IMG/VR virus record: IMGVR_UViG_2529292913_000006
Direction: 5' to 3' (one strand)
Length of the DNA stretch: 50,227 nt
Source: a virus
Lineage: Duplodnaviria > Heunggongvirae > Uroviricota > Caudoviricetes
The translations under genes were made by a program, and so were the position numbers. A model generated the notes under the pieces. The model was not told the DNA's origin. It saw nothing but the letters and a program-made list of their open reading frames with translations, and made no database searches. Of the stretch, positions 1-50,227 are shown one piece after another; within the stretch, counting starts at the first letter, position 1; every line of letters starts with the position of its first letter.

Positions 1-1143
1 CTATGCTGTTTTGATATCTACGATAATCCAGTCTTTACCACGATCATCATTGTATCGGTCGGTCATTTTTCTGGATTTATGGCCTAACAATTTTTGCGTA
101 TCCAGACCCTGTTCCCGATATAACCGTTCTGACAGAGATCGCTGCTCATGAAATGTGGGCGCAGTTCCTTGCTCCCATTTTATGCCACATTTTTCCCGGG
201 CCTTTTTAAAAGCCGTTGTCAGAGTATTTGCAGAAACCTGGTCTCCTCTGTTTGCTTGAGAGGTAGTGTGACGGTAATGGACCAGATATTTACTAACAAC
301 AGCATCCCTGCACTGAGATATAACTTCACGAAGGGTAATATTCAGAGCATCGCATTTCAGGTTAAGCGGAATAGCAAGTTTTGAACCGGTTTTTTCCTGA
401 GTAATGTGCAACATGTCGTCCCATATATCAGAGAATTTCAAATTGCAGATATCGCCTAAACGTTGTCCAGTAACAAGAGCAAGTAGCATGCCGCATTTTA
501 AATAGGGCTGCCGTCTGCTTACGCTTTCAAATATTGCCTGCCATTCGGGCAGTGACAATCTTTGGCGGTTTACTCGATTTCGCGGTTGTTTTGTTGCCTG
601 CGCTGGGTTAAATCCTGGCGGAACATGTCCTGCGTGTTGTGCTTCTTTGAAGACGTCGATCAACACCATTCTCACGACTTGCGCCATCCTGTTATGACCT
701 TCAGCCTTTACAGCATCAATTATTTCGGCAATATCAAGTGCGGTAATATCCTTGAGGTGTTGCATTCCACAATGCTCACGGAAAAGACGAATGGGTTTGC
801 CTTTTTGCCGATAGGAGTTGGGTCTTAGTTCATTATGTTGCAGCCTGTCCTCCTGGATAGAAATATATTTATCAAGCCATTCTGTCACCGTAATGTCTGA
901 GCGCCTGCCTTTCATTCTTTCCAGACGCTCATTGACGCTTAATATTTGTCGGGTACGTTGTTCAGCAATAATGGTATTTGCTTCAGTAGCAACTTGTTTT
1001 GCTTCATTCTCATCAGTTCCTAAGCTATGAAAACGACCGGATAGTGGATGTTTGTATTGCCAATATACCTTTCCGGTTCGCTTATCTAATTTGCAATATA
1101 AATTGGGTATAGAGATTTTGTGAGATCGGGGTCTAGCAGCCAT
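1..1143 (-). CDS. int: Phage tyrosine integrase (lambdoid, icd-targeting type)
   Basis: 380-aa ORF, ATG at 1143, stop at window edge; C-terminal tyrosine-recombinase motifs; xis immediately upstream; icd 3' fragment at the other prophage end. Confidence 0.9.
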   Translation of the reverse strand: MAARPRSHKISIPNLYCKLDKRTGKVYWQYKHPLSGRFHSLGTDENEAKQVATEANTIIAEQRTRQILSVNERLERMKGRRSDITVTEWLDKYISIQEDRLQHNELRPNSYRQKGKPIRLFREHCGMQHLKDITALDIAEIIDAVKAEGHNRMAQVVRMVLIDVFKEAQHAGHVPPGFNPAQATKQPRNRVNRQRLSLPEWQAIFESVSRRQPYLKCGMLLALVTGQRLGDICNLKFSDIWDDMLHITQEKTGSKLAIPLNLKCDALNITLREVISQCRDAVVSKYLVHYRHTTSQANRGDQVSANTLTTAFKKAREKCGIKWEQGTAPTFHEQRSLSERLYREQGLDTQKLLGHKSRKMTDRYNDDRGKDWIIVDIKTA

Positions 1144-2404: not shown

Positions 2405-2962
2405 TCATGCAGCCTCCCGACGGGCAAGAATCCTTGAGCCGAACGCCATCAACTCTCCACGATCAACGGTCGTAAAGTGGCAGTGTGTACGGGGGTATGG
2501 GTGCCAGATAATGAGCATCGAGCCTTTATTATTTCCACTGACGGGTTTCTCAGTGAGTGGGTTAATAAATGCCAGTCGTCCTGCCGTGATGAATCTGACC
2601 TCACTGGCGGTTTGTATCGCTTCATGAAACCATCCGACAGATGTGTCAGCAGGCAATAACATTACACATCCCACACTACTGAATTTGTTTTCAGTGGCTG
2701 CCTTTTTCACAAAAGGGGAAATATTGCTGTATGGTGGATTCAACCAGACATAACCAGAGGCATATCCCATTGCTTCAGGCCATGAAGTGGTTAATGTGTT
2801 CTGCTCCTGTGAGATAAAAAGCCGACATAGTCGGTTTTTTTCGCTGGCGGCAGCATCAAGTTGAAAAACGAACTCTGCATTAAGCGCAGCAAAAATCTCT
2901 GGTGGTGTGCGCCAGCTGTCGCGATGTTCGGCAGGAGTATTGCTTCCGGTGAAATCAGTCAT
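2405..2962 (-). CDS. Phage DNA N6-adenine methyltransferase (Dam-like)
   Basis: 185 aa containing the NPPY motif (WLNPPYSNISPF) of N6-adenine MTases. Confidence 0.8.
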   Translation of the reverse strand: MTDFTGSNTPAEHRDSWRTPPEIFAALNAEFVFQLDAAASEKNRLCRLFISQEQNTLTTSWPEAMGYASGYVWLNPPYSNISPFVKKAATENKFSSVGCVMLLPADTSVGWFHEAIQTASEVRFITAGRLAFINPLTEKPVSGNNKGSMLIIWHPYPRTHCHFTTVDRGELMAFGSRILARREAA

Positions 2963-5611: not shown

Positions 5612-5645
5612 AAAACCCGGCACGGTGGCCGGGACGTTTTATTTC
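5612..5645 (-). terminator. Rho-independent terminator ending the immunity-region operon
   Basis: Stem CCCGGC/GCCGGG (5616-5633) followed on the minus strand by a T-run; sits immediately downstream of the DUF4411 stop. Confidence 0.6.
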
Positions 5646-6151
5646 AAAGAAAAATTATGACTAGCGTATCTTGGAAGAAATTCATATAGTGTTAATGTCT
5701 TAACGCCGTGAGAAGCAGCAGCATCCGGGATCATTATTCTTTTTTTAGGTTTGCCACCGGATGGTTTCTCATGGGTAATAATAGTATATCCATGTGTCAT
5801 CGCATGGGCTATTAAAAAAGCATCTGCTTTTTCATGGCTTGCAAAATCAAACTTTGCCTTTTCGGTAACATCTAATTTAGTTGACCAATTTATTAACTTT
5901 GCATAATTTTCTATTGAACTATGCTCATCTTCGAAGAATGATGATGGTAACTCTTCTTTAATCCATTTACACAATGGATCATCTTTTGCACATAGTTCTT
6001 TTTTTACAGCATTAATGCTATAAATCAGACCATTAATGTGTAAAGCGAGAAGAAAATCCCAAAATATTTTGCAATAATTGAAGTTATATGCAAAGTTTTT
6101 TGCCTCTATGAAGACATTACTATCAATTAAGAATTTTCCATTATGAATCAT
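5639..6151 (-). CDS. DUF4411-family protein (predicted PIN-like nuclease), candidate toxin/effector
   Basis: 170-aa ORF; ATG overlaps the stop of the upstream ImmA-like gene (ATGA coupling); family assignment from memory of sequence features. Confidence 0.75.
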   Translation of the reverse strand: MIHNGKFLIDSNVFIEAKNFAYNFNYCKIFWDFLLALHINGLIYSINAVKKELCAKDDPLCKWIKEELPSSFFEDEHSSIENYAKLINWSTKLDVTEKAKFDFASHEKADAFLIAHAMTHGYTIITHEKPSGGKPKKRIMIPDAAASHGVKTLTLYEFLPRYASHNFSLK

Positions 6152-7287
6152 AGAGATTCTCGTTTTTTATAAAATTCAACAACTGTATCTGCTTTTACAT
6201 TTAGCAGTACGCCTGCTTCCCTTAATGGTAATTGTTGAGACATTGCTTTGGAAATTATTATATTCGTAAGTTTTGGACTGTTACGAACAGGTAATGTGTT
6301 AAAGAAAGAACCACCATTGGATTCTTTTTTGGGCTTATTGTAAGCTTGATCTTTAATTATCTCCAAAGTGTTTCTTTCTATCAAATCTAATTGTAACGCT
6401 TTGATTGCACAAGCGAAATCACTAACCTTAAATAACTTAGAAACCTCTTTTACTCGATAATAATTATTATCGCTGGATGCATTAAGCCAGAAAGATTTGA
6501 AGAGATTATCAGGCATTAAGATTTCAGCAGCAACTTTATTACAAAAAGATTCTATGTTTTTTTCTGTGTCCCACCCAGAGACTCCATCGACTCCAAGCCA
6601 AAGATGAGCCACCTCATGAAATAATGTAAATACCTGCGCAGATAACGCGTCCGAGCTATTTACAAAAATGATCGGAGCAACGCTATCAGATATACAGAAA
6701 CCACGAAACTCTCGCGTGTCAAGTTTTCTTTTATTATTATTACCCACAACACCATTCTTGAAAACTAATACGCCAGTGTCTTCTATTAGTTTTGCCACTT
6801 TAGAAAAATAGCTCTCAAAAGTGACATTTTTTATCTCTTTTTGTATATCAAAATGTATTGTGTTTGCTATGTCTGTAGCAACAACCTTATAATTTAATTT
6901 TCTATTAAATTTAAATTTACCAATAAAATCGAGTGGATCATCATTACCATTTTCTCTTAAATAGTCTTTGTACCACTCAAGTTTATATTCTATATCATAG
7001 TAAACATCAAAAAAATCTTTTCCTAACTCACGGCTATTTATAGCTTGCCTTAAGTCAGGGATCTTGGGTTTGGCTGGAGTTGGTGGCGTTTCAAGAAATA
7101 AAAAACCGAAAGGGATTCCTCCAATTTTTGCCAGTTTTTCTGCTGCGGATTTACTTACCACTCCGTTAAGAAATTTATTAATCTTTTTGGGCATGACTTG
7201 GTCAGCAAGAGTTTCGATAGAAACTCCTTGAGAATTTGCTATCCAATCAATCATCTTCCTAGACAATTGAAATTCAACCGCTGCCAT
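6148..7287 (-). CDS. HTH (XRE-type) plus ImmA/IrrE-family zinc metallopeptidase (COG2856-like)
   Basis: 379 aa; HEXXH motif (FHEVAHLWLG) in central region; N-terminal HTH-like segment; good SD (AGGTGA) upstream. Confidence 0.8.
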   Translation of the reverse strand: MAAVEFQLSRKMIDWIANSQGVSIETLADQVMPKKINKFLNGVVSKSAAEKLAKIGGIPFGFLFLETPPTPAKPKIPDLRQAINSRELGKDFFDVYYDIEYKLEWYKDYLRENGNDDPLDFIGKFKFNRKLNYKVVATDIANTIHFDIQKEIKNVTFESYFSKVAKLIEDTGVLVFKNGVVGNNNKRKLDTREFRGFCISDSVAPIIFVNSSDALSAQVFTLFHEVAHLWLGVDGVSGWDTEKNIESFCNKVAAEILMPDNLFKSFWLNASSDNNYYRVKEVSKLFKVSDFACAIKALQLDLIERNTLEIIKDQAYNKPKKESNGGSFFNTLPVRNSPKLTNIIISKAMSQQLPLREAGVLLNVKADTVVEFYKKRESL

Positions 7288-13949: not shown

Positions 13950-15032
13950 TTAGAACTGGTAAACCATACCTACAGCAACGATATCATCGGTAGCAACGCC
14001 AGATGCTTTCGTGAAATCGCTCTTATCAATCAGGTTGATTTTGTAATCAACAAAAGTGGACATATTTTTGTTGAAGTAATAGGTTGCACCTACATCAATA
14101 TATTCAACCAGGTCCTGATCACCCCACGCACCCAAGTCTTTTCCTTTAGATTGCAGGTAAGCAACGGACGGACGCAGACCGAAGTCGAACTGATATTGTG
14201 CAACTACTTCGAAGTTTTGTGCTTTGTTGGCAATATGGTTATTACCAAAAACAGTCATGTTCTGGGTTTCAGAATAGGTGGTAGCCAGATAGATGTTGTT
14301 CGCATCATATTTCAGACCAGCTGCCCATACTTCAGCATTTTGACCAGATGCATTCAGGCTGTTGTTACCGTAGATAACCTGATTATTAGTGCGGTCAGAT
14401 TTAGCATAGGTTGCACCTACACCGAATCCTTCATACTCATAAGTAGTGGAGAAACCGAAACCATCACCATTAGCTTCAGTTACGTCAGTGCGGTCATTTT
14501 TACCCTGATACTGAGCAGCAAAGTTCAGACCATCAACCAGACCAAAGAAGTCGTTGTTACGATAAGTTGCAACACCAGTGGTGCGACCAGTCATGAACAC
14601 ATCTGTTTGGGTCCAGGTATCGCCACCGAATTCTGGCAGAACGTCAGTCCACGCACCGATGTCATATGCTACACCGTAGTTACGGCCGTAATCGATTGAG
14701 CCGTAGTCCCCGAATTTCAGGCCTGCAAATGCAAGACGGGTTTTGTCTTTGGAGGAGCCTTGAGATTCAGCGCGGTTGCCTTTGAATTCATATTCCCACT
14801 GACCGAAACCAGTCAGTTGATCGTTGATTTGGGTTTCACCTTTGAAGCCAAGACGGGCATAAGTAGTATCACCATCATCTGCATCATTAGAGGAGAAGTA
14901 GTGCTTGGCATTAACTTTCCCATATAGATCCAGCTTGTTACTGTCTTTATTATAAATTTCAGCTGCCTGAGCAGACATCGCCATCAGTACTGATGCAGCT
15001 ACAGCAGAAATTGCCACTGTTAATTTTTTCAT
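13950..15032 (-). CDS. nmpC: OmpC/OmpF-family general porin (NmpC/Lc-type, prophage-encoded)
   Basis: 360 aa with signal peptide ([23 protein letters not shown]), porin hallmarks and C-terminal MVYQF; antisense between Q and the lysis cassette. Confidence 0.9.
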
Positions 15033-16251: not shown

Positions 16252-16617
16252 ATGATTGATGTCTTAGGACCGGAGAAACGCAGACGGCGTACTACACAGG
16301 AAAAGATCGCTATTGTTCAGCAGAGTTTTGAACCGGGAATGACAGTCTCCCTTGTTGCCCGGCAACACGGTGTGGCAGCCAGCCAGTTATTTCTCTGGCG
16401 CAAGCAATACCAGGAGGGAAGTCTTACTGCTGTGGCCGCAGGAGAACAGGTCGTTCCTGCCTCTGAACTTGCTGCCGCCATGAAGCAGATTAAAGAACTC
16501 CAGCGCCTGCTCGGCAAAAAAACGATGGAAAATGAACTCCTTAAAGAAGCCGTTGAATATGGGCGTGCAAAAAAGTGGATAGCGCACGCGCCCTTATTGC
16601 CCGGGGATGGGGAGTAA
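16252..16617 (+). CDS. insC: IS2 transposase OrfA (InsC)
   Basis: 121 aa ([41 protein letters not shown]...); SD GGAGAG. Confidence 0.9.
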
Positions 16618-17480
16618 GCTTAGTCAGCCGTTGTCTCCGGGTGTCGCGTGCGCAGTTGCACGTCATTCTCAGACGAACCGATGACTGGAAAGATGGTCGC
16701 CGCAGCCGTCACTCAGATGATACGGATGTGCTTCTCCGTATACACCATGTTATCGGAGAGCTGCCCACATATGGTTATCGTCGGGTATGGGCGCTGCTTC
16801 GCAGACAGGCCGAACTTGATGGTATGCCTGCGATCAATGCCAAACGTATTTACCGGATCATGCGCCAGAATGCGCTGTTGCTTGAGCGAAAACCCGCTGT
16901 ACCGCCATCGAAACGGGCACATACCGGCAGAGTGGCTGTGAAAGAAAGTAATCAGCGATGGTGCTCTGACGGGTTCGAGTTCCGCTGTGATAACGGAGAA
17001 AAACTGCGAGTCACGTTCGCGCTGGACTGCTGTGACCGTGAGGCACTGCACTGGGCGGTCACTACGGGCGGCTTCAACAGTGAAACAGTACAGGACGTCA
17101 TGCTGGGAGCGGTGGAACGCCGTTTCGGCAACGAGCTTCCGGCGTCTCCAGTAGAGTGGCTGACGGATAATGGTTCATGCTACCGGGCTAATGAAACACG
17201 GCAGTTTGCCCGGATGTTGGGGCTTGAACCGAAGAACACGGCGGTGCGGAGTCCGGAGAGTAACGGCATAGCAGAGAGCTTCGTGAAAACGATAAAGCGT
17301 GACTACATCAGTGTCATGCCCAAACCAGACGGGTTAACGGCAGCAAAGAACCTTGCAGAGGCATTCGAGCATTATAACGAATGGCATCCGCATAGTGCAC
17401 TGGGTTATCGCTCGCCACGGGAATATCTACGGCAGCAAGCCAGTAATGGGTTAAGTGATAACAGGTGTCTGGAAATATAG
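16575..17480 (+). CDS. insD: IS2 transposase OrfB (InsD), DDE integrase core
   Basis: 301 aa overlapping insC in the -1 frame, the usual IS3-family arrangement. Confidence 0.9.
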
Positions 17481-38850: not shown

Positions 38851-38859
38851 GGGGTGAAT

Positions 38860-41800
38860 ATGGCAGTAAAAATTTCAGGTGTACTGAAAGACGGTGCAGG
38901 TAAACCGGTACAGAACTGCACAATCCAGCTGAAAGCAAAACGTAACAGCACCACGGTGGTGGTGAACACGGTGGCATCTGAAAATCCGGATGAAGCAGGG
39001 CGTTACAGCATGGACGTTGAGTACGGTCAGTACAGCGTTATTCTGTTGGTGGAAGGCTTCCCGCCATCGCATGCCGGGACCATCACCGTGTATGAAGATT
39101 CTCAACCCGGTACGCTGAATGATTTTCTCGGTGCCATGACGGAGGATGATGCCCGTCCGGAGGCACTGCGCCGCTTTGAACTGATGGTGGAAGAGGTGGC
39201 GCGTAACGCGTCCGCAGTGGCACAGGACACGGCAGCCGCGAAGAAGTCAGCCAGCGATGCCGGCACATCAGCCCGTGAGGCGGCAACCCATGCGACTGAT
39301 GCTACAGGCTCAGCACGCGCAGCCAGCACGTCAGCCGGACAGGCCGCGTCGTCGGCTCAGTCAGCGTCTTCCAGCGCAGGAACGGCATCAACAAAGGCTA
39401 CTGAAGCATCAAAAAGTGCTGCCGCTGCAGAGTCCTCAAAAAGCGCGGCGGCCACCAGTGCCGGTGCGGCGAAAACGTCAGAAACGAATGCGGCAGCGTC
39501 ACAACAATCAGCCGCCACTTCTGCATCCACCGCGACCACGAAAGCGTCAGAAGCTGCCACCTCAGCCCGGGATGCGGCGGCCTCAAAAGAGGCAGCGAAA
39601 TCATCAGAAACGAACGCATCATCAAGTGCCAGTAGTGCAGCTTCCTCGGCAACGGCGGCAGGAAATTCCGCGAAGGCCGCAAAAACGTCTGAGACGAATG
39701 CGGATAACAGCGCACAGGCGGCAGCGGCCTCACAAACTGCATCGGCAAACTCCGCGACAGCAGCCAAAAAATCAGAAACCAACGCGAAAAATAGCGAGGC
39801 AGCAGCAAAGAGCAGCGAAACAAACGCTAAAGCCAGCGAAACTAATGCTAAATCCAGTGAAACAAACGCGGCGAAATCTGCGGCGGACGCACTTAATTAT
39901 CGCAACCAGGCGCAAGTAATTGTTGGCGATAATATCGGTCTTGGCTCAGCCCCGCGTGATTGTCCTGATATTTCCGGCAACCCATCAGGGTATATCGGAT
40001 TTATGCGCATTATGAGTAATGCAAAAGGCTTTCCATCGATTGCATCCGGTGAAAGCAGTCTTACGGGGTTTATTAGTCAGGTAGATGGAACACCAGCGTA
40101 TACAGGTGTATTTCAGGGATGGGCTACGCGCTCGCTTTATACTTATCGCTGGAATCCGACAATAGGCCCGCAGTGGACGCGTCACGCAAGAAAAGATGCA
40201 GTGGACAGGCTTACTCAACTAACAGGTAATACACGCGTATATTGTCAAAATGCAAGCAAATTTTTTAGTATCTACGATTCAGGAACATGGGGTTATTACG
40301 ATGCAGAGAATAGCGAATGGATTCCGCTTTCGATCGCGGCCGGAGGTACTGGTGCGGCAACTATTGATGGTGCCAGAACGAATCTTGGCTTAGGTAGGAA
40401 CAACAGCCCTCAACTTAACAGTCTATTTCTTGATAGATATAGTGATTCGACCAATACATACACATCTAGTGGAATTCTCCATACAAGACTGTTAGCAACT
40501 GACAGCACTGTGCGTCTTGGTGCTGATATGTATGTTGAGACTTTATCAAATGAGCCAGGTCAATTAACAATAAGGTTTACATACGATGGTTCAACTGGTG
40601 CTTCAAAATATCTAAACCTTAACTCAGAAGGTAATTTAATTGTAGATAGTGCGATACTGAGATCAACGGTTGAAAAACCTTTACAAATAAGGAGCGCTAA
40701 CCCAGCAATAAGATTTAATGAAACAGATCGCCCGGCTAACACGCCTACTTATACTCTCATTGCTAATGCTGGCGACTGGTTTATTCAGAAACGCGATTAT
40801 GATGATGCCGGAAGCGTTAGTAACGCAATTGCATATAATTTCGCAAACGACAGAATTGATGTGCAAAATCTTAAAGCGTCTGGGTTAATTACAGCTAACT
40901 CAGGAATCGCAACATTAACAGGTCATGACTGGAACTCTCAGCATACTGATAACGTCGACAAATTTAGACCAATCGCAGGCAGTACAAACGGCCCGGCAGG
41001 CTCTATGGTTCTTGGCGGCATTCATGTTCAATTTAGTAAAAATTATGCTGTGCAGTTCGGAGGCCGCAATTCCGGTTTTTGGGGAAGAACAATTGAAAAT
41101 GGAACGACGCAGGAATGGAAGAAATTACTAACAGTAGACGATCTCAATTCATCTACCGATCTTGCTGTCAGGTCATTAACCACATCTAACCCGGTAAAAT
41201 CTGGCGGAGGGCGAATTGATGTCCTTGGAAGCACGTCAGACTATAGCAAAATGGATTGCTTTGTACGTGGGTTTGATAGCACCGGTAATTCTCTCGCGTG
41301 GGCGTTGGGTTCATCAGTCGGCGTAAGTAAGATGCTGTCGCTAAAAAATTTCTTTAGCGGAGCTGAGATACTGCTAAATGGTAATGACGGCGCGGTTCAA
41401 CTCAAAACAGGTGCTGTTAACGGGGCTAAAGCGCAGGCGCTCACTATCAACAAGGATGAGGTTAACTCAACTGTTGATTTAACTCTTACAAAACAAACAG
41501 GGACTGGAAATCGTTTTGTTTTACAGAACTTAGGTAATACAGAACTATCATTTGCCGCAAAAGTATGGGGATCAAGTGATCGACAAAACGTTTTTGAGGT
41601 TGGAACGTCTGCTGCGTATCTGTTTTATGCGCAAAAAACGTCAGCAGGCCAGTTGTTTGATGTAAATGGCGCTATTAATTGCACAACGCTGAATCAGTCA
41701 TCAGACCGCGACCTTAAAGACGATATTCTCGTTATCAGCGACGCGACGAAAGCAATCCGTAAAATGAACGGATACACCTACACGCTCAAGGAAAACGGGA

Positions 41801-42135
41801 TGCCTTATGCTGGCGTTATTGCACAGGAAGTAATGGAGGCGATACCAGAAGCTGTGGGATCGTTTACTCATTATGGTGAAGAGTTGCAAGGTCCGACCGT
41901 TGACGGCAACGAGCTACGCGAAGAAACTCGCTATCTTAATGTTGACTACTCCGCCGTGACGGGTTTACTTGTTCAGGTCGCCCGTGAAACAGATGATCGC
42001 GTTACCGCGCTGGAAGAGGAAAACACAACGCTACGTCAAAATCTGGCAACAGCAGGCACCCGGATCAGCACTCTGGAAAATCAGGTAAGCGAACTGGTTG
42101 CACTTGTCCGGCAGTTAACAGGAAGCGAACATTGA
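38860..42135 (+). CDS. stf: Side tail fibre: lambda Stf N-terminus fused to a distal region ending in an S74-type intramolecular chaperone domain
   Basis: ATG 38860 (MAVKISGVLKDGAGKPVQNCTIQLKAK...); Ala/Ser-rich SETNA repeats at about 39230-39900; C-terminal SDRDLKDDI... coiled-coil tail. Confidence 0.8.
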   Translation: MAVKISGVLKDGAGKPVQNCTIQLKAKRNSTTVVVNTVASENPDEAGRYSMDVEYGQYSVILLVEGFPPSHAGTITVYEDSQPGTLNDFLGAMTEDDARPEALRRFELMVEEVARNASAVAQDTAAAKKSASDAGTSAREAATHATDATGSARAASTSAGQAASSAQSASSSAGTASTKATEASKSAAAAESSKSAAATSAGAAKTSETNAAASQQSAATSASTATTKASEAATSARDAAASKEAAKSSETNASSSASSAASSATAAGNSAKAAKTSETNADNSAQAAAASQTASANSATAAKKSETNAKNSEAAAKSSETNAKASETNAKSSETNAAKSAADALNYRNQAQVIVGDNIGLGSAPRDCPDISGNPSGYIGFMRIMSNAKGFPSIASGESSLTGFISQVDGTPAYTGVFQGWATRSLYTYRWNPTIGPQWTRHARKDAVDRLTQLTGNTRVYCQNASKFFSIYDSGTWGYYDAENSEWIPLSIAAGGTGAATIDGARTNLGLGRNNSPQLNSLFLDRYSDSTNTYTSSGILHTRLLATDSTVRLGADMYVETLSNEPGQLTIRFTYDGSTGASKYLNLNSEGNLIVDSAILRSTVEKPLQIRSANPAIRFNETDRPANTPTYTLIANAGDWFIQKRDYDDAGSVSNAIAYNFANDRIDVQNLKASGLITANSGIATLTGHDWNSQHTDNVDKFRPIAGSTNGPAGSMVLGGIHVQFSKNYAVQFGGRNSGFWGRTIENGTTQEWKKLLTVDDLNSSTDLAVRSLTTSNPVKSGGGRIDVLGSTSDYSKMDCFVRGFDSTGNSLAWALGSSVGVSKMLSLKNFFSGAEILLNGNDGAVQLKTGAVNGAKAQALTINKDEVNSTVDLTLTKQTGTGNRFVLQNLGNTELSFAAKVWGSSDRQNVFEVGTSAAYLFYAQKTSAGQLFDVNGAINCTTLNQSSDRDLKDDILVISDATKAIRKMNGYTYTLKENGMPYAGVIAQEVMEAIPEAVGSFTHYGEELQGPTVDGNELREETRYLNVDYSAVTGLLVQVARETDDRVTALEEENTTLRQNLATAGTRISTLENQVSELVALVRQLTGSEH

Positions 42136-42174
42136 TATCCTTCAAGCCCTGAAGGAGGCTGTTCCTGGTACGTT

Positions 42175-42306
42175 CAGACTGTTGCTGAGCTGGAGATCGC
42201 AACGGAGGAAGAGAAAGCGTTTCTGGCCGCATGGAAAACATATCGGGTATTGCTGAACCGTGTTGATACAGTAAACCCCGTCTGGCCTCCACCTTCGAAG
42301 CGATAG
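42175..42306 (+). pseudogene. tfa: Remnant 3' end of a tail fibre assembly gene
   Basis: Open frame ...[40 protein letters not shown] resembling Tfa C-termini; no start codon or 5' portion. Confidence 0.45.
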
Positions 42307-42610
42307 CCCAGCAACTCCTAAATAGCTGCGCATAATACCGCTACACCTGCCGTTTTACTGACATTTGGAATATTGCGTGAGGGCAACATATCGAGGGGCA
42401 GATACAGCTCGGTCAAATAGAAAAACAGCCCCACTATTTACCATGCAATAGCTGGTCAAAAGGAGAGCACTATTCCGCTCCGCGTAGTATTTTGTGTTTA
42501 TAGTGATAACTTAGGTAATGCTTAGTCACTAAGATACTTTGCTATTGGAGAGCGATTTATAATGTGGGCGCAACAGATTTTTACTATTGCGCCACTTGCT
42601 CTTGTGAGTA

Positions 42611-43699
42611 CTATTCGCTATAAGTTAATGTTGGTTTTGAAAGTCTTTTGGATATTGTTTTTCCGATATTAATGAATGGAGTTTCAATATATTTATAAAT
42701 AAAGAATGATAAGAACAAGCTAAGAGCAATAATGAATGAAAACTTAGAGAACCCAGGTTTTTCATAAAGCGGAATGAAATCCTTAAAATTAATTAAAAAT
42801 AGCATTACTATCGCATGGGATAAATACAGAGAGTAAGAGATATCACCTAGCTTACTGAGTATTTTATTTTCCCTTAATCCGAAGTTAACTTCATAAAGTA
42901 AAACTCCCGTAATTATGGAGGCTGCCCACAATCCGAAGTTTAAAGGGCCATGACCAAATCTGAATTGATAAAAATATGAGCAAACACCAAATGAAACCAA
43001 AAGGAATGATATCGCCTTTGCGTTTTTTATATATTTAAATTTTCTGTGTATTATATACAGAAACATCCCATAAACGAATTCTAACAGCATGGGTGATGAC
43101 ATTAAGTTTAGAAAGCCAATATGCCAATGACCTGTATCACCAATCGTAAACTTACTTGATAGAGAAAGGCTGTTGGAAAATTTCAACTGTATGAGAAGTA
43201 GCGGGACTATCAATGCAATAACTGATATTAATAATCTGTTTTTATGACTCAGCGATATTGCAAGCATAAAAATGAAATAAAAATAGACTTCAAAGGTTAA
43301 TGTCCATGCTGGATAAAGCACGTTGTATCCGAAGAATGGCGCTTCTGAATAATAGTCCAGGTGAAGCAGAAACAATGAACGCAATAATTCACTTTCGGTG
43401 AAGACTGGGTTCAATAAAAAGAATAAGATTGTGCAAATGAAAAATACAGGGTAAATCCTGAAAAAACGCCTGGTCATAAAGTTAATAGGGGAATTTGTTT
43501 CTTTTTTTTGACTCGATAACATTATTATAAATCCACTTATAATAAAAAACAGATCAACCCCAAAACCACCACTAATAAACAATAAATCACCTAGATCTTT
43601 TTGTGCGTAAACTTCATTTAGGTATTGTTTATTGTGATATGCAACAACGAGTAATGCTGCTACACCTCGCAAATAGTGAATTGATTTTACCTTCTTCAT
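42611..43699 (-). CDS. Acyltransferase family 3 integral membrane protein (O-antigen/LPS acetyltransferase-like)
   Basis: 362 aa, about 10 predicted TM segments, conserved N-terminal region (YLRGVAALLVVAYH...FFIISGF); low GC; antisense. Confidence 0.8.
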   Translation of the reverse strand: MKKVKSIHYLRGVAALLVVAYHNKQYLNEVYAQKDLGDLLFISGGFGVDLFFIISGFIIMLSSQKKETNSPINFMTRRFFRIYPVFFICTILFFLLNPVFTESELLRSLFLLHLDYYSEAPFFGYNVLYPAWTLTFEVYFYFIFMLAISLSHKNRLLISVIALIVPLLLIQLKFSNSLSLSSKFTIGDTGHWHIGFLNLMSSPMLLEFVYGMFLYIIHRKFKYIKNAKAISFLLVSFGVCSYFYQFRFGHGPLNFGLWAASIITGVLLYEVNFGLRENKILSKLGDISYSLYLSHAIVMLFLINFKDFIPLYEKPGFSKFSFIIALSLFLSFFIYKYIETPFINIGKTISKRLSKPTLTYSE

Positions 43700-44169
43700 T
43701 TTTATATAATCACTGTTCCAATTTTTTTATTTTACAAACAATTCTATCTAGCTCATTAGTACTCAAAGTCAGATTGGTAGCAATAAAAAAACAAGATATG
43801 TGATGACATGGCGCGGGGCTCAGAACCACTCGTGTATTTTCGCCACTGGCTATGACTGGCTGCACCTGCAAGATCTGCCATTTGTGTGCCAGTATACCCA
43901 AGCTCTGACTTTATGTTTACCAGATCCTCTGGAGTGCCGGGGAGTATAATCGTTGATTAATCGAATCTGCAACTATTTCAGAACGACCTAGGTTAAAGTG
44001 CGCTCTGCAGTCTCTTATATAAGGTGATACTTTAATTGTCTGGAAACTGGACAGGTTAGGAAGGAGCAGGAAACATCTTATTATACTTACCGAGTAGCTG
44101 CGGGTAAGGGGGGGATTTCCGTAGCCTGACAGGTAACATTGACACGTCAACATCGATGGTTTTTTTTAT

Positions 44170-44412
44170 TTTTCCATGTGATGGAGCCCTGGTTGAAATG
44201 AAGCGTGAACTGATTGATGACTGAACAAAAGTTGGACTGGAAGATGCTCGCGCACAGGGAGGAATTGGTGGACGTCGTCCTAAACTTACATCAGAACAAT
44301 GGGCGCAGGCCGGGCGATTAATTGCATCAAAAGTCCCGCGTCAGAAGGTGGCGATCATCTATGATATTGGTGTATCGACTTTGTATAAGAGGTTTCCAGC
44401 CAGGATTATATA
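44170..44412 (+). pseudogene. pin: DNA invertase (Pin/Gin/Hin family) 3' remnant with frameshift
   Basis: Frames encode FFHVMEPWL..., MKRELIDD*, then LEDARAQGGIGGRRPKLTSEQWAQAGRLIASKVPRQKVAIIYDIGVSTLYKRFPAR, matching invertase C-terminal HTH; N-terminal catalytic domain absent. Confidence 0.7.
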
Positions 44413-44736
44413 AAACTGCAGACACGCCGTATGCAAGACGTGCTGCGGTTGGTTGATGCACTTTCGAGAGTGTATGTATTGAATAATTTCCAACCGTCAT
44501 TAATTTTATTTATTTTTTGCATGAGAGGATTTGAACCTCCGAGCCTCGACACCTTATGACAACGCGATATTCCCTTGATGACCGCTATGCGCCAAAATAA
44601 CCAATTGATAAATAAGTTGATTTTAATTGGTTGGAAGCAAGTCAGGTCAAATTCAGCATGCCGCTCTCTGTATCGGGTAGTTAAATTTTTCTATAACTGA
44701 TAGTAATATGTTAAAACTCACACAGATAAATTATCA

Positions 44737-46719
44737 TTGCTCAACAAGTATAATGGAGTTCCCGTGGATACAGCAGAACATGATGGCAAATTTGCTTGGG
44801 CTAGTTTTTATGAGGCTTTTGCCAACGCGTTACTGACTTGGCGAAATCGTAGAGATGAATTAGTCAAAGGTATTCATCTAATTGCCTCAGGTGTGGAAGG
44901 AATGTCCCATCTGCAGGACAAATCTATTATGGGAGAGATCTTTCCCTTAAAAGACATTTGTCCGTTTACTACTATGGGCTTGTTCAATCGTAACTTGACC
45001 GACAGCAATCGCAAAATTATTGCTGCCAAGCTAGCGAATTTGTTGGGCGTGAACGAACCGATTCCTGACTCCTTTGCCGGAATCCCGCTGTTGAATAACC
45101 AAAAATCTTGGTTCTTTGGTTATGAAAAGTCACGCGACCCTAATGACATTGAATGCTTGTGGGAAATGTTCTCGCAGGCAATGACCTTTGCGGATAACCA
45201 GAATACTAACTCTGCAGACTTCACTGCCGCATATGACATCGCTTCTACAGTAATGAATGTCGGTTGGAATCTCACCATGGGGTTGTACTGGACCCGTCCT
45301 TGGTTCTACCCTACTTTAGATAGCCAGTCGCAGTATTACATTCAGACAGTGTTAAACATTAAGATCATTAAAAACGGGGCAAAAGGTCGCTGTAGTGGAC
45401 AAAGTTACCTGAGTCTTATGCGGGCGCTGAACGAGGTCTTTACCCAACCAAACTATCCGGTTCATTCTTTCCCAGAACTTTCTTTATCAGCGTGGAATAC
45501 AGATCTTAGCCAGTCTAAAGATGAGGTGGCAAATAGAACGTGGAAAGCCTCTTTACTGAATAAAATTAAGGCGTTATGCCTGAAAAAAAATGGCCCTTAT
45601 TTCACTGCTTCGGAGTTGGAAGAAAACTACTTGGACGTATTCAAGGTAGAGCATCCTGAGAGCAAAACAGTTACAAGCTCAATCTACTTTTATCTACAGA
45701 AACTATGCAATGATGATGAGTTAAAGTCCCTTGAGTCCGGAAATTATGAATACCTGAATTTTGAGAAAAACGAATCCCAGACGATAACTGAGGAAACTGT
45801 CGAAGAGAGTGCGCCGTTGCCAAAACTCACTCACGTTCCTTATGACATCAGTCATCTGGTGCAGGATGGCTGTTTCTTGGAAGAGGCTAAGATCCAACTC
45901 ACACTTCAGCGCCTGATCGACAAGAAAAACCTGATATTACAAGGACCACCCGGAACTGGAAAAACCTGGTTAGCGCGACGTCTGGCGTACTGCTTGATGG
46001 GAGAAAAAGCACCTGAGCGTATTAGCGCGGTGCAATTTCACCCGAACCTCTCTTACGAAGACTTTATTCGCGGCTGGCGTCCAGGTAAAGAAGGGCAATT
46101 GACGCTAATTGATGGACCTTTTGTAAATGCAATCAAAACTGCAGTCAATAATCCTACCTCGAAATATGTGGTGATAATTGAAGAGATTAATCGTGGCAAT
46201 CCGGCGCAAATCTTCGGTGAAACACTCACGTTGATGGAAGCAGATAAACGCACGCCGACTGAGGCATTATCTCTTTCCTATCCTAAAAATGATGATGAAA
46301 AAATATACATTCCTGAGAATCTATATATCATCGGTACGATGAATATTGCAGACCGCTCACTCGCACTACTTGACCTAGCGCTGCGCCGTCGTTTCGCGTT
46401 TATCGATCTAAAGCCAGCTTTTAATGACGCGTGGAGAAACTGGGTAAATTATAATTACGCAATTGATTTTGACATGTTAGCATTCATCAAATCTCGACTG
46501 ACGGTACTTAACGATATGCTGGCAAAAGATGTTACCTTAGGACCACAGTTTTGTATCGGTCACAGCTATGTCACCCCAGCTATCGGCCAAAAAATCAACG
46601 ATGCCCAGGCTTGGTATGAACAAGTCGTTGATACAGAGATCTGCCCTTTGCTCGCCGAATATTGGTTCGATGCTCCAAATAAAGTCGATGAAGCCAGAAA
46701 AGTGTTATTAGCAAAATGA
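44737..46719 (+). CDS. McrB-like AAA+ GTPase with a long uncharacterised N-terminal domain
   Basis: Walker A GPPGTGKT, Walker B VVIIEEINRGN, McrB-type MNIADRS motif, RRRF arginine finger; about 390 aa of non-canonical N-terminus; start uncertain (track TTG 44737; GTG 44764 has a GGAG SD). Confidence 0.8.
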   Translation: MLNKYNGVPVDTAEHDGKFAWASFYEAFANALLTWRNRRDELVKGIHLIASGVEGMSHLQDKSIMGEIFPLKDICPFTTMGLFNRNLTDSNRKIIAAKLANLLGVNEPIPDSFAGIPLLNNQKSWFFGYEKSRDPNDIECLWEMFSQAMTFADNQNTNSADFTAAYDIASTVMNVGWNLTMGLYWTRPWFYPTLDSQSQYYIQTVLNIKIIKNGAKGRCSGQSYLSLMRALNEVFTQPNYPVHSFPELSLSAWNTDLSQSKDEVANRTWKASLLNKIKALCLKKNGPYFTASELEENYLDVFKVEHPESKTVTSSIYFYLQKLCNDDELKSLESGNYEYLNFEKNESQTITEETVEESAPLPKLTHVPYDISHLVQDGCFLEEAKIQLTLQRLIDKKNLILQGPPGTGKTWLARRLAYCLMGEKAPERISAVQFHPNLSYEDFIRGWRPGKEGQLTLIDGPFVNAIKTAVNNPTSKYVVIIEEINRGNPAQIFGETLTLMEADKRTPTEALSLSYPKNDDEKIYIPENLYIIGTMNIADRSLALLDLALRRRFAFIDLKPAFNDAWRNWVNYNYAIDFDMLAFIKSRLTVLNDMLAKDVTLGPQFCIGHSYVTPAIGQKINDAQAWYEQVVDTEICPLLAEYWFDAPNKVDEARKVLLAK

Positions 46720-47837
46720 CGACAATAACCGGGAGTGAGCAACATACAGCATCACGTATTCCCATGCGAAATATCTGGATGCTGATGCTGTACGCTTCAG
46801 ATCTGTTTCGTCAGTTAGGGCGCAATCAGATCGCAGTAGAAGATAACCCAGCAGAAATCCCCGACCTGGTGGCGACAATCCTCCTTCATGAGATTACGCT
46901 GCGCCGACGTCGCAATTTAAATATGGGATACCAAACTTGTCATGCGGCCCTGAACCGGGTGAGAGGGCGCATTGACATACTGTATACTGCCAGTCATCAA
47001 CTACTGGAACGGGGACAGGTTGCCTGCCATTTTCAAGACATAACCCTCAACACCCCCCGAAATCGCTATGTTCGCTGTGCGTTAGAACGTCTGGCCTCAA
47101 TCATAGTGAAACCGTCTTTGGCGGCAGATTGCCATTTTATGGCAATATCACTTCGCCGTGAGGGGATAAATGGAGGATATCCTGCCCCCCACGAATTACC
47201 CTCAGTGTGGCGTTTTGGACGCCATGATGCCGCAGATAAACCGATGGTCGATGCCGCACGATTAGCTTTTGAACTGCTGATGCCGACCGAAGATCAAGGC
47301 CAATATCTTTTACCTGCGCCCTCAAATAACCTTTACTGGATGAGAAGACTATTTGAAAAAGGTATCGCTGGCTTATATCGTGTACACCTTGCCAAAACAA
47401 CTTGGCAGGTCTCTGCAGGGAAAGAGCTGAAATGGGCGTTGAGCGATCAAAGTGCAGGTAGTGCAGAGATTTTCCCGACAATGAAGTCAGACATTATTCT
47501 GGAACACAAGACTGCCCAGCGGCGTATTATTATCGATACCAAATTTAATTCGATTCTGACAAAGGGTTGGCATCGGGAGCAATCACTACGTAATGGCTAT
47601 ATTTATCAGCTATATACCTACCTTAGAACACAGGAGAACAAGACGGATCCGCTTTCGCTCAATGCCGCTGGTCTTCTACTTCATCCAGCTGTTGGCTATA
47701 TGCTTAATGAGTATGTTGTCACTCAGGGACATAAGATCCATTTTGCTACAGTAGATATGACGGTAGATGCTAAAGCAATTAAAAAACAATTGCTGGCAAT
47801 AGCCCATGATTGTGCAGGAGTCGCGGTTGATGACTAA
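46716..47837 (+). CDS. McrC-like PD-(D/E)xK nuclease partner
   Basis: 373 aa; ATGA overlap with upstream gene; candidate catalytic motif SDIILEH...IIIDTKF. Confidence 0.7.
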   Translation: MTTITGSEQHTASRIPMRNIWMLMLYASDLFRQLGRNQIAVEDNPAEIPDLVATILLHEITLRRRRNLNMGYQTCHAALNRVRGRIDILYTASHQLLERGQVACHFQDITLNTPRNRYVRCALERLASIIVKPSLAADCHFMAISLRREGINGGYPAPHELPSVWRFGRHDAADKPMVDAARLAFELLMPTEDQGQYLLPAPSNNLYWMRRLFEKGIAGLYRVHLAKTTWQVSAGKELKWALSDQSAGSAEIFPTMKSDIILEHKTAQRRIIIDTKFNSILTKGWHREQSLRNGYIYQLYTYLRTQENKTDPLSLNAAGLLLHPAVGYMLNEYVVTQGHKIHFATVDMTVDAKAIKKQLLAIAHDCAGVAVDD

Positions 47838-48539
47838 CCATCCTATAAGGCACTGGCTGTAATATAATCAATAGTTTCAATTAAGTAGCTGTTATCCGTG
47901 CTTAGTCATCATATGACGCACCACGGTCTAATTTTCCTGCTCATACATTGATATATCCTTGTCGAGCCCGGAAAGTCGCAGTCCACTATTAGGTATACCG
48001 ATTGCCAGCACCAAAAGCTTCTTTGTAATTATTATATCGGGGAATGCCTATTTTTTAGTGACAATATCAGATAGCAATTAATAAGCGGTGCCGGTAATGG
48101 ATGTTATGTTTAATGTATAGATACAGTCATCATAAACTAAACGTCTGTTGTTCGCTCATAACCGACATTTATCTCAGTTATGGAAGATAATTATGTATGC
48201 AGATAATGGGGCAGACAGTCGTGGAGTAAACAAGGTTTTGCACTGATTGGCGGCATCGTTATCTTATTTTTAATTATGTGCCTCTTAACATAAGTTGGGA
48301 CAAAACAGAGACACATAAGGTCTCACAAAGGTCTGCAAGGCCTCACATGTATTGAGGTGTTAATAAAATGTAGACTTGTAATTTGGATATAAATGGTAGA
48401 GAAAACCTTTCCCCAAAATAAAAACGAACGTCAATGAAATCAAACGGTTGAATAAAGTTGATTTTGGCTAATAAAAAAACAATAAAATATTTTTTATGAT
48501 TAAATATCAATGACTTGAACTTAATGTTTTTATATACTG

Positions 48540-48701
48540 TTACGCCATATGGGTTGGACTGAAGCGGCTGACCTGATTGTTAAAGGTATGGAAGGCGCAA
48601 TCAATGCCAAGACCGTAACCTATGACTTCGAACGTCTGATGGAAGGCGCTAAATTGCTGAAATGTTCAGAGTTTGGTGACGCGATCATCAAGAATATGTA
48701 A
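48540..48701 (+). pseudogene. icd: icd 3'-terminal fragment at attR (icdC-type remnant)
   Basis: Frame encodes [53 protein letters not shown], the C-terminus of isocitrate dehydrogenase, with no upstream gene body; AT-rich phage DNA to the left. Confidence 0.85.
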
Positions 48702-48724
48702 TCTCTCCATGTGTTAAATATTGA

Positions 48725-48756
48725 AACGGGCGTATAACACGCCCGTTGTTTTATTT
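48725..48756 (+). terminator. icd rho-independent terminator
   Basis: AACGGGCGT-ATAACA-CGCCCGTT followed by a T-run. Confidence 0.65.
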
Positions 48757-48803
48757 ATGTGGATATTATTAATAGCATATCGAGCATATTTATATAAAAC
48801 CCT

Positions 48804-49127
48804 TTACTTGAGCCCATATGGGCATATTTTTATAATGCAACTATTATGCAAACATTTATTTGTTATTTTGCTTTCTCCTGGAGGACACTCTTGACTGCTT
48901 TTGAGTAGACTCCATAAATCCTTGTTGAATGGTGCGATGTTATAAATAGTAATAGGATATTCTTTATCTTTAAGGATAATACCAGATTTAACCGGTTTAA
49001 ATATACTGCCAGGAGGGAGAAATATAGTAGATTGATACCAGATGATCATTTTCATATCACCCCATATGACTGAAAAAGATATACCGCATGTAGGTTGAAT
49101 TACCGTGTCAATTACTATCCACTTCAT
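48804..49127 (-). CDS. iraM: Anti-adaptor protein IraM
   Basis: 107 aa recognised as IraM ([19 protein letters not shown]...[16 protein letters not shown]). Confidence 0.85.
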
Positions 49128-49822
49128 TTGTTATGTCTTATCCCACGGTATTTAATATAGTTCATTTGGATATTCATTTCTTTATTTTGCATATGAGTAT
49201 ATTACCCCTTCAAAAAATAAATTAATTAAAACGATTGCTTATATAAAACAAAATTTAAAGCAAGGAATCTCAATGGATGTTAAACAAAATGAGATTTAGT
49301 GAAAACAATAAATTATTCACTTCGTTTTAGATTTGTTTAGCTATAATGTTATACATTCAAATGACTGAACATCCTGTAATTAAAACATAGCCTTTATGCT
49401 ACTTGGTGCCAATTTGCTAAACATTATGGTTGCTTTTTTATATAACGATAATAATGAATATAAGCATGACATGAGAATAAGGTTCCAATTTTTGAGTTAT
49501 ATAGGAAAGGTTTAACCTGTTCCTGGCTAAAATACATATAACTGGATGATGACTAAACCAAAACACATGTGCGTTAAGTATTGAAACGGGCGTATGGCAC
49601 ACCCGTTGTTTTTATAAATATATTAACCGTTATAAAATAACGTATAGAAAGTCAAGTGATCACATTTCAAATATCAATTTGATAGTATTGGCCTGGTGAT
49701 TATTTATGGGTAGCAATAAAAGGACAGTATTTATCATCCATAGGGATAGTCTCTGTACTTTTATTCCCATTATGCTAATGCCTTACTGAATTATGAAGCA
49801 TTTCTTTAGTATCCAACTTTAG

Positions 49823-50227
49823 CTAGATTAATGGTTTATTATTTTCTACATCTTCAATATATAAAAGCGTATTATCAATGGCGTAGTAACTGCGTTTGTT
49901 ATGATTAACATCAGTAACCCAACGGAAAACGCCCGCGCCTGCTAGTGTTGAACAGTATTCCCGAAATGTAGATTTTCCGCAAATATGAAGCAATGCGGCC
50001 TCTTTTATTTTAGCAGGGTTCTTGGTCGTACTAACTTTTAACAGGTTCCTGGTTCCTCTTAATAACAAAACCGTATCATCGTGAGTAATAATTCTGATGT
50101 TATCCGTAGCCAGATAATAAATGTAATGTGCAATACGGTGATGTTTTAATTCTGAATAAAACCAGGAGAAGTTTTGCTCTTTTCTCACTTGCTCAAACAT
50201 CTTTTGAAAAACAACGACCTGATCCAT
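49823..50227 (-). CDS. ycgX: YcgX-like hypothetical protein
   Basis: 134-aa ORF with ATG at the window end; order after iraM matches E. coli. Confidence 0.65.
   Translation of the reverse strand: MDQVVVFQKMFEQVRKEQNFSWFYSELKHHRIAHYIYYLATDNIRIITHDDTVLLLRGTRNLLKVSTTKNPAKIKEAALLHICGKSTFREYCSTLAGAGVFRWVTDVNHNKRSYYAIDNTLLYIEDVENNKPLI

Follow-up and report, generated by a model that had tools for sequence, protein, structure and literature searches.

The stretch of DNA considered here (the window, 50,227 nucleotides, IMG/VR virus record IMGVR_UViG_2529292913_000006) contains a lambdoid prophage in Escherichia coli DNA, inserted in icd. At its right end, the remnant of a pin-type invertase gene is followed by an mcrB-like gene, an mcrC-like gene, a spacer and the displaced 3' end of icd, downstream of which lie iraM and then ycgX (Table 1). 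An earlier note, made from the sequence alone, had described the two genes as a McrBC-like GTPase and nuclease pair occupying the cargo slot beside attR, the place where prophage e14 carries mcrA. Comparison with the e14 end of K-12, where the order is pinE, mcrA, icdC and iraM, bears out this placement, and both open reading frames (ORFs) are present on the plus strand as the note had listed them.

Table 1. Features of the prophage and of its mcrBC-like cassette, in window coordinates (aa, amino acids, counted from GTG 44764 for the mcrB-like product)
Feature	Position	Strand	Remarks
Integrase	1-1143		Left end of the prophage
Dam-family N6-adenine methyltransferase	2405-2962	-	PF05869, E 2e-56
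Acyl_transf_3 family gene	42611-43699	-	E 2.6e-34; GC about 33%; between the tail-fibre region and the pin remnant
pin-type invertase remnant	43966-44401	+	tblastn with K-12 PinE; pseudogene in PGAP
Shine-Dalgarno GGAG	44755-44758	+	5 nt ahead of GTG 44764
mcrB-like gene	44764-46719	+	651 aa from GTG; the listed ORF (660 aa) opens at TTG 44737
DUF8425 (PF28527)	44764-45513	+	aa 1-250; conserved alpha-rich module
DpnI_C-type winged helix (PF17726)	45532-45753	+	aa 257-330; recognition helix ...PESKTVTSSIYFYLQKL...
Linker	45754-45867	+	aa 331-368; acidic, low-confidence; joins sensors to motor
McrB AAA+ GTPase domain and lid	45868-46716	+	aa 369-651
mcrC-like gene	46716-47837	+	373 aa; ATGA overlap with the mcrB-like gene; D259, D274 and K276 at nt 47484-47546
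Spacer	47838-48542	.	705 bp, AT-rich (GC 0.34-0.39), between mcrC and attR
attR core and displaced icd 3' end (icdC equivalent)	48543-48701	+	attR core near 48543; icd 3' end 48549-48701

The product of the mcrB-like gene corresponds to RefSeq WP_000379042.1, named "AAA family ATPase". Its start codon had been flagged as unclear because no in-frame ATG was seen near the 5' end, and the start is indeed not an ATG. PGAP places it at GTG 44764 (NZ_CP027140), which is preceded by a Shine-Dalgarno sequence, and of 103 aligned homologues, the two nearest to it (P0001 and P0002, the latter a 631-aa protein of Leclercia) begin MDA(A/V)E at this very residue; many remoter homologues also begin within a few residues of it. 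GTG 44764 is thus most likely the true start. In many homologues, a further, unassigned domain of about 160 aa precedes this point (motif REWYFYT-R-T-WRV-PGDW), and a 5'-truncated, inactive gene was one of the outcomes that, according to the earlier note, would have spoken against a working system. A stop codon upstream of GTG 44764 leaves only 19 sense codons, and a tblastn search of positions 43001-45000 with five such N-terminal extensions found no remnant of them, the sole signal being read-through of the shared DUF8425 start. As the orthologues start at the same place, a stop lies close upstream and no trace of an extension is left, truncation was rejected; judged by these alignments, the gene is a naturally short form.

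The C-terminal 280 residues or so of this protein match Pfam AAA_5 (E 3.5e-27) and, over aa 378-652 of the 660-aa ORF, the solved EcoKMcrB motor (6hz4_A, E 4e-77), with 55-60% identity to the latter. All four GTPase motifs reported previously are located in the region that matches EcoKMcrB: counted from the GTG start, GPPGTGKT begins at aa 394, VVIIEEINRGN at 469, MNIADRS at 526 and RRRF at 541, so that the Walker A lysine is K400, the Walker B glutamates are E473 and E474, the NxxD element is N527-D530 and the arginine fingers are found in RRRF 541-544. The full set of Walker A, Walker B, NxxD and arginine-finger residues of a McrB-type AAA+ GTPase is therefore present. The RNA-linked CoCoNuT clade of McrBC relatives has NxD in its GTPase (PMC11090510). 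A CoCoNuT reading was rejected for the present protein, as N527-I-A-D530 is of the NxxD and not of the NxD form and neither a coiled-coil nor a CSD domain was found.

The mcrC-like protein scores above the equivalog cutoff of the NCBIfam McrC model (355.6 versus 338 bits), matches Pfam McrBC (E 5e-21) and aligns from end to end with EcoKMcrC (6hz4_M). Its residues D259, D274 and K276 align to D244, D257 and K259 of EcoKMcrC, which confirms the candidate PD-(D/E)xK motif noted previously, and the ATGA overlap between the two genes, also noted then, is likewise present in the Leclercia orthologue as a 4-nt overlap. By motif conservation and homology, the pair is a McrB-type GTPase motor with a McrC whose nuclease motif is intact, lying directly downstream. 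PGAP places the mcrC start at ATG 46764, giving 357 aa, against 373 aa from the upstream ATG 46716; the Leclercia McrC (77% identical) is conserved upstream of the PGAP methionine and has a valine in its place. The PGAP start is thus probably 16 codons too short, ATG 46716 being the likely true start. The partner bears the name "McrC" in public records, and both the 373-aa and the 357-aa versions of it circulate in databases. No methyltransferase gene adjoins the cassette here or at the Leclercia locus.

The remaining part of the mcrB-like protein was predicted not to resemble the DNA-binding domain of EcoKMcrB, and this holds, although the region counts about 368 aa from the GTG start rather than 390. 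It has no match in the local Pfam, NCBIfam or PADLOC libraries, among PDB sequences, or to the EcoKMcrB N-domain. The NCBIfam EcoKMcrB model (NF008457) is matched at positions 176-452 only (265 bits versus a cutoff of 637) and not over its full length with the DUF3578/ADAM domain that binds 5-methylcytosine (5mC). The canonical McrB N-domain that, according to the earlier note, would have refuted its reading was rejected.

What this region contains became apparent from a homology search that returned 280 relatives, of which 120 were listed with their precomputed Pfam strings. These strings comprise PF28527 (DUF8425), PF17726 (DpnI_C) and PF28529 (McrB_lid), in addition to AAA_5; that of the Leclercia orthologue reads DUF8425, DpnI_C, AAA_5, McrB_lid, with a McrBC-family gene next to it. 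AlphaFold2 models built with the homologue alignment agree with this make-up: aa 1-250 form an alpha-rich domain and aa 257-330 a classical winged helix, from which a disordered linker leads to the motor. The predicted local distance difference test (pLDDT) score is 89.5 for aa 1-369 and 93.2 for aa 1-252, the latter with a predicted template modelling score of 0.91, and it falls below 50 for aa 341-357 of the linker, which is gapped and only 18% identical to that of the Leclercia orthologue. The non-canonical sensor expected previously therefore consists of two modules rather than of one domain: the DpnI-type winged helix and, ahead of it, DUF8425, which is presumed to be a sensor of DNA or of a base. 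Identity to the Leclercia orthologue decreases from the AAA+ domain (84%) and McrC (77%) to DUF8425 (65%) and the winged helix (45%), the fastest-diverging part, a gradient as would arise if specificity resided in the N-terminal modules.

The winged helix is homologous to DpnI_C and matches the fold of DpnI residues 183-254. In DpnI, the methyl pockets and base contacts are formed by E228, K229, R231, Q232 and Q235 (PMC3424567; the PDB numbering of DpnI is offset by +3). At these five places, the prophage protein has S, S, Y, F and Q and the Leclercia protein H, T, S, H and Q; Q235 is invariant in the set of McrB-linked winged helices. With four of the five contact residues replaced and Q235 alone retained, DpnI-like reading of G6mATC (6mA, N6-methyladenine) is not predicted, and this specificity was rejected. 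Such a result fits the setting, as E. coli is Dam+ and the prophage itself encodes a Dam-family methyltransferase, an enzyme that bears on self-tolerance in the case of this DpnI-type winged helix.

From these data we propose, with a probability of roughly 0.68, that the prophage carries an intact McrBC-type (type IV) restriction system with a reader composed of DUF8425 and a DpnI-type winged helix, likely aimed at a modification foreign to E. coli. As in EcoKMcrBC, its homologue, the AAA+ domain of the mcrB-like product would form GTP-bound hexamers, into which McrC would insert, stimulating GTP hydrolysis and supplying the PD-(D/E)xK active site; the identity between the motors and the conserved motifs suggest that cleavage would follow GTP-driven translocation. 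Recognition would be carried out by DUF8425 and the winged helix, both flexibly linked to the ring, and by analogy with known type IV systems GTP-dependent cleavage would be restricted to modified DNA. The host would be spared if the recognised feature were absent from Dam- and Dcm-methylated E. coli DNA. Because the winged helix has lost most of the DpnI contacts, no methyltransferase accompanies the pair, and host and prophage both make G6mATC, the target is most likely a modification absent from E. coli, for instance a hypermodification of phage DNA or a methylation pattern that is neither Dam nor Dcm. The cassette would then be a moron that protects the lysogen from the same slot as McrA of e14.

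Several observations weigh against this proposal. The cassette was not found in a phage genome collection, by either DNA or protein search. PADLOC-DB v2 calls no type IV system, the McrB matching only "REase_II" models and the McrC matching nothing, which also means that automated censuses of defence systems likely overlook the pair. A promoter and terminator scan stayed at chance level.

One alternative is a 6mA-dependent type IV system in which sensing falls primarily to the winged helix, with 6mA being read outside the Dam GATC context, or only where it is dense or patterned in a foreign manner, as by promiscuous phage adenine methyltransferases. The winged helix is a true DpnI_C homologue with the invariant Q235, and DpnI and several nucleases fused to winged helices do read 6mApT (PMC11037411); however, only about 10% of winged-helix fusions keep the 6mA/GATC motif (PMC11037411), and the S, S, Y and F substitutions, the Dam+ host and the Dam-family enzyme of the same prophage all speak against it. 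Moreover, a DpnI_C winged helix occurs in just nine of the 120 listed DUF8425-McrB proteins, other relatives having alternative DNA-binding winged helices, Mrr_N after DUF8425 or HTH_24 before it, and this scarcity suggests an accessory module rather than the core sensor. We consider 6mA sensing unlikely.

DUF8425 itself precedes McrB motors in a broad range of bacteria. When 1.84 billion representative sequences were searched with a profile built from 26 diverse members, 2,552 clusters were retrieved at E <= 1e-3, of which 1,001 reached E <= 1e-30, and all nine long members sampled have AAA_5/McrB at their C-terminus, some together with TPR arrays or with DUF8425 in tandem. According to these searches, DUF8425 is a dedicated, very common and highly modular N-terminal module of McrB proteins. 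Relatives are found on plasmids or megaplasmids of Deinococcus, Rhodococcus, Clostridium and Proteus, and most are annotated as "AAA family ATPase" or "McrB family protein"; on Bacteroidales plasmids, a DUF8425-like stretch lies beneath an "FRG domain" annotation. PF22014 (DUF6932), matched by three of the 26 members at E 0.0013, was treated as noise.

A lead on the fold of this module comes from Foldseek, which for the larger model lists Ogg2 (3fhg, 3knt), MutY and hOGG1 at weak E values of 0.6-1.6. The invariant stretch VGWNLTMGLYW-RPW-FPTLD (GVGWNLTMGLYW-RPW-FPTLD) also presents a turn, a helix, a Pro-rich loop and an acidic residue, with a spacing that resembles, by eye only, the HhH-GPD motif of Ogg2 (the motif used for this comparison was verified against PDB sequences). 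Profile comparisons give no such signal: hhalign of DUF8425 against E. coli Nth, AlkA and the Ogg2 HhH-GPD motif yields probabilities below 1%, HMMER searches with the 26 members against Pfam, HhH-GPD and OGG-like models included, and with a profile against PDB sequences retrieve nothing, and DUF8425 shows no profile similarity to the HhH hairpin and GPD aspartate. It is therefore a lead and not a result, and a rather doubtful one, that DUF8425 could have diverged far from an HhH-GPD (Ogg2/EndoIII-like) fold and act as a base-flipping module, corresponding in McrB proteins to the "iEndoIII" sensors of END nucleases; together with the re-specified winged helix it would form a two-reader head recognising hypermodified phage DNA broadly rather than one methyl mark. 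If true, one of the largest families of McrB N-domains (at least 2,500 clusters) would be a derivative of a repair glycosylase, and the E. coli prophage copy would be a natural model for such a reader.

That DUF8425 would in addition be an active glycosylase, excising a modified base so that the abasic site or the glycosylase-DNA complex recruits or blocks the motor, appears quite improbable: this explanation presupposes the HhH-GPD origin that the hhalign and HMMER comparisons do not support, an asparagine occupies the position of the catalytic lysine of Ogg2, and the related END sensors are reported to be catalytically inactive (PMC12191111).

The distribution of the cassette was considered in complete E. 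coli genomes. Its 3.5 kb are at least 99% identical in 306 of 5,426 genomes (5.6%), in a chromosomal position every time, and the exact mcrB-like protein occurs on at least 1,000 contigs. A common junction of mcrC, spacer, icd' and iraM in 302 genomes indicates that the cassette is essentially always at the attR of icd, while the pinE-mcrA-icdC arrangement of K-12 type is found in 330 genomes. In strain AR_0369, the cassette is intact amid a badly decayed prophage. A decaying or silent remnant, carried passively in a defective prophage with no present function, might be suspected from the frameshifted pin gene that adjoins the cassette, from the heavy degradation of the surrounding prophage in some strains and from the lack of a convincing promoter in the scan. 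Against this, both ORFs are full length with all catalytic motifs kept, and such high identity persists even where the prophage has decayed, a retention that is the opposite of neutral decay; we regard a remnant as very improbable. Some McrBC relatives, such as LlaJI, are methylation-sensitive, and a system that cuts DNA lacking the host or prophage mark, with Dam as self-protection, would accord with the Dam-family gene of the prophage, but is very improbable, as this gene lies about 42 kb away and outside the operon, strains in which most of the prophage is deleted keep the cassette and the Leclercia locus has no adjacent methyltransferase either.

Around the cassette, the pin remnant directly upstream matches PinE in two frames, over aa 36-84 and 84-181 (65-75% identity), being frameshifted and devoid of its N-terminus. 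The Acyl_transf_3 gene in the same slot is probably a second cargo gene, a moron for acylation of lipopolysaccharide or O-antigen. The spacer is unrelated to the e14 end of K-12 by alignment and contains only ORFs of 40-55 aa, and a search of positions 42000-50227, spacer included, found no Rfam family. Elsewhere in the prophage, the Dam-family gene adjoins the YqaJ exonuclease and RecT recombination genes. Genes for DUF4411 (E 1e-37) and Peptidase_M78/IrrE-like (E 1e-13) proteins, at 5639-7287 on the minus strand, overlap by 4 nt beside an S24/HTH repressor gene and may act together in defence or as toxin and antitoxin. The prophage also contains a full-length general porin gene (13950-15032, minus strand, Porin_1, E 3e-153) and an IS3-type transposase gene (rve, 16575-17480, plus strand). 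The compositional anomaly at 39000-40000 (GC up to 0.61, AT skew about 0.4), within the tail-fibre ORF 38854-42135, falls on a long repetitive part of the 1093-aa side tail fibre that is rich in Ala, Ser and Thr.

Although McrBC is the textbook enzyme of type IV, few N-terminal readers of McrB have been characterised, namely DUF3578 of EcoK, the YTH-like domain of Thermococcus and the B3-like domain of a LlaJI-type McrB homologue of Helicobacter. The sensor of the prophage protein is unlike that of every characterised McrB, but the novelty claimed in the earlier note has to be qualified: DUF8425 is not confined to this locus, being a huge family already catalogued, and the architecture is already in print (PMC11037411). 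The prophage pair is a member of a catalogued but uncharacterised McrBC variant, and we infer that it depends on modification and has a new specificity. The value of the cassette would be that of a native and experimentally tractable E. coli model for the variant with an N-terminal domain (NTD), winged helix, NTPase and McrC. Knowledge of its target would give thousands of DUF8425 homologues a function, would test whether DpnI-type winged helices can be re-tuned away from 6mA/GATC, and would explain a strain-specific barrier to phages, therapeutic ones included, and to modified DNA being transferred to E. coli. Should the target prove to be an ordinary methyl mark, the pair would be just one more specificity variant of McrBC.

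The literature search retrieved no paper naming DUF8425 or the two RefSeq accessions, and the McrBC census of Bell et al. (2024) does not discuss DUF8425 (PMC11090510). The nearest published group is that of Helbrecht et al. (2024), who searched for fusions of DpnI-like winged helices and listed "NTD-wH-NTPase + McrC-like" as an uncharacterised putative type IV system, for which the one purification attempt failed (PMC11037411). The prophage pair has this architecture, with an NTD, a DpnI-like winged helix, a McrB-like NTPase and a separate McrC, and shares with the group the order of domains and the absence of an adjacent methyltransferase. By contrast, Helbrecht et al. hypothesised 6mA sensing for their group, whereas the winged helix here has no 6mA/GATC motif and resides in a Dam+ host. 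The supplement of that paper mentions neither the 651-aa protein nor DUF8425. A conceptual parallel is offered by the preprint of Yee et al. (2025), in which an inactivated EndoIII/Ogg-like domain of the "END" nucleases senses diverse hypermodified phage DNA; the same sensor is mentioned there, untested, as fused to McrB-like GTPases (PMC12191111). In both cases, a fold like that of repair glycosylases would be reused as a reader of hypermodified DNA, and the END-Mag sensor matches 3FHG and 3KNT, both of which are among the weak Foldseek hits of DUF8425. However, END sensors are detectable by HHpred as EndoIII/OGG-like, whereas DUF8425 gives no sequence signal and a marginal structural match, and the identity of the two domains is not established.

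Among the characterised enzymes, R.DpnI (PDB 4esj, 4kyw) has its winged helix fused to a PD-(D/E)xK domain, whereas that of the prophage is fused to a GTPase motor. McrB of Thermococcus gammatolerans, with its YTH-like N-domain, is a precedent for a swap of sensors with the motor and McrC kept. EcoKMcrA of e14 is likewise type IV cargo between pin and the attR of an icd-integrating prophage, but as a protein it is unrelated, being a single-chain NEco-HNH enzyme. With EcoKMcrBC (PDB 6hz4, 6ut6), the prophage pair shares the AAA+ GTPase motifs, the N-terminal domain and D...DxK nuclease of McrC, and the overlapping order of mcrB and mcrC. By contrast, the McrC proteins match only weakly (phmmer E 3e-15, 59 bits), EcoKMcrBC resides in the immigration control region and the prophage pair at icd, and the 5mC-flipping N-domain of EcoKMcrB (DUF3578/ADAM, about 160 aa) has its place taken here by DUF8425, the winged helix and the linker, 368 aa in all.

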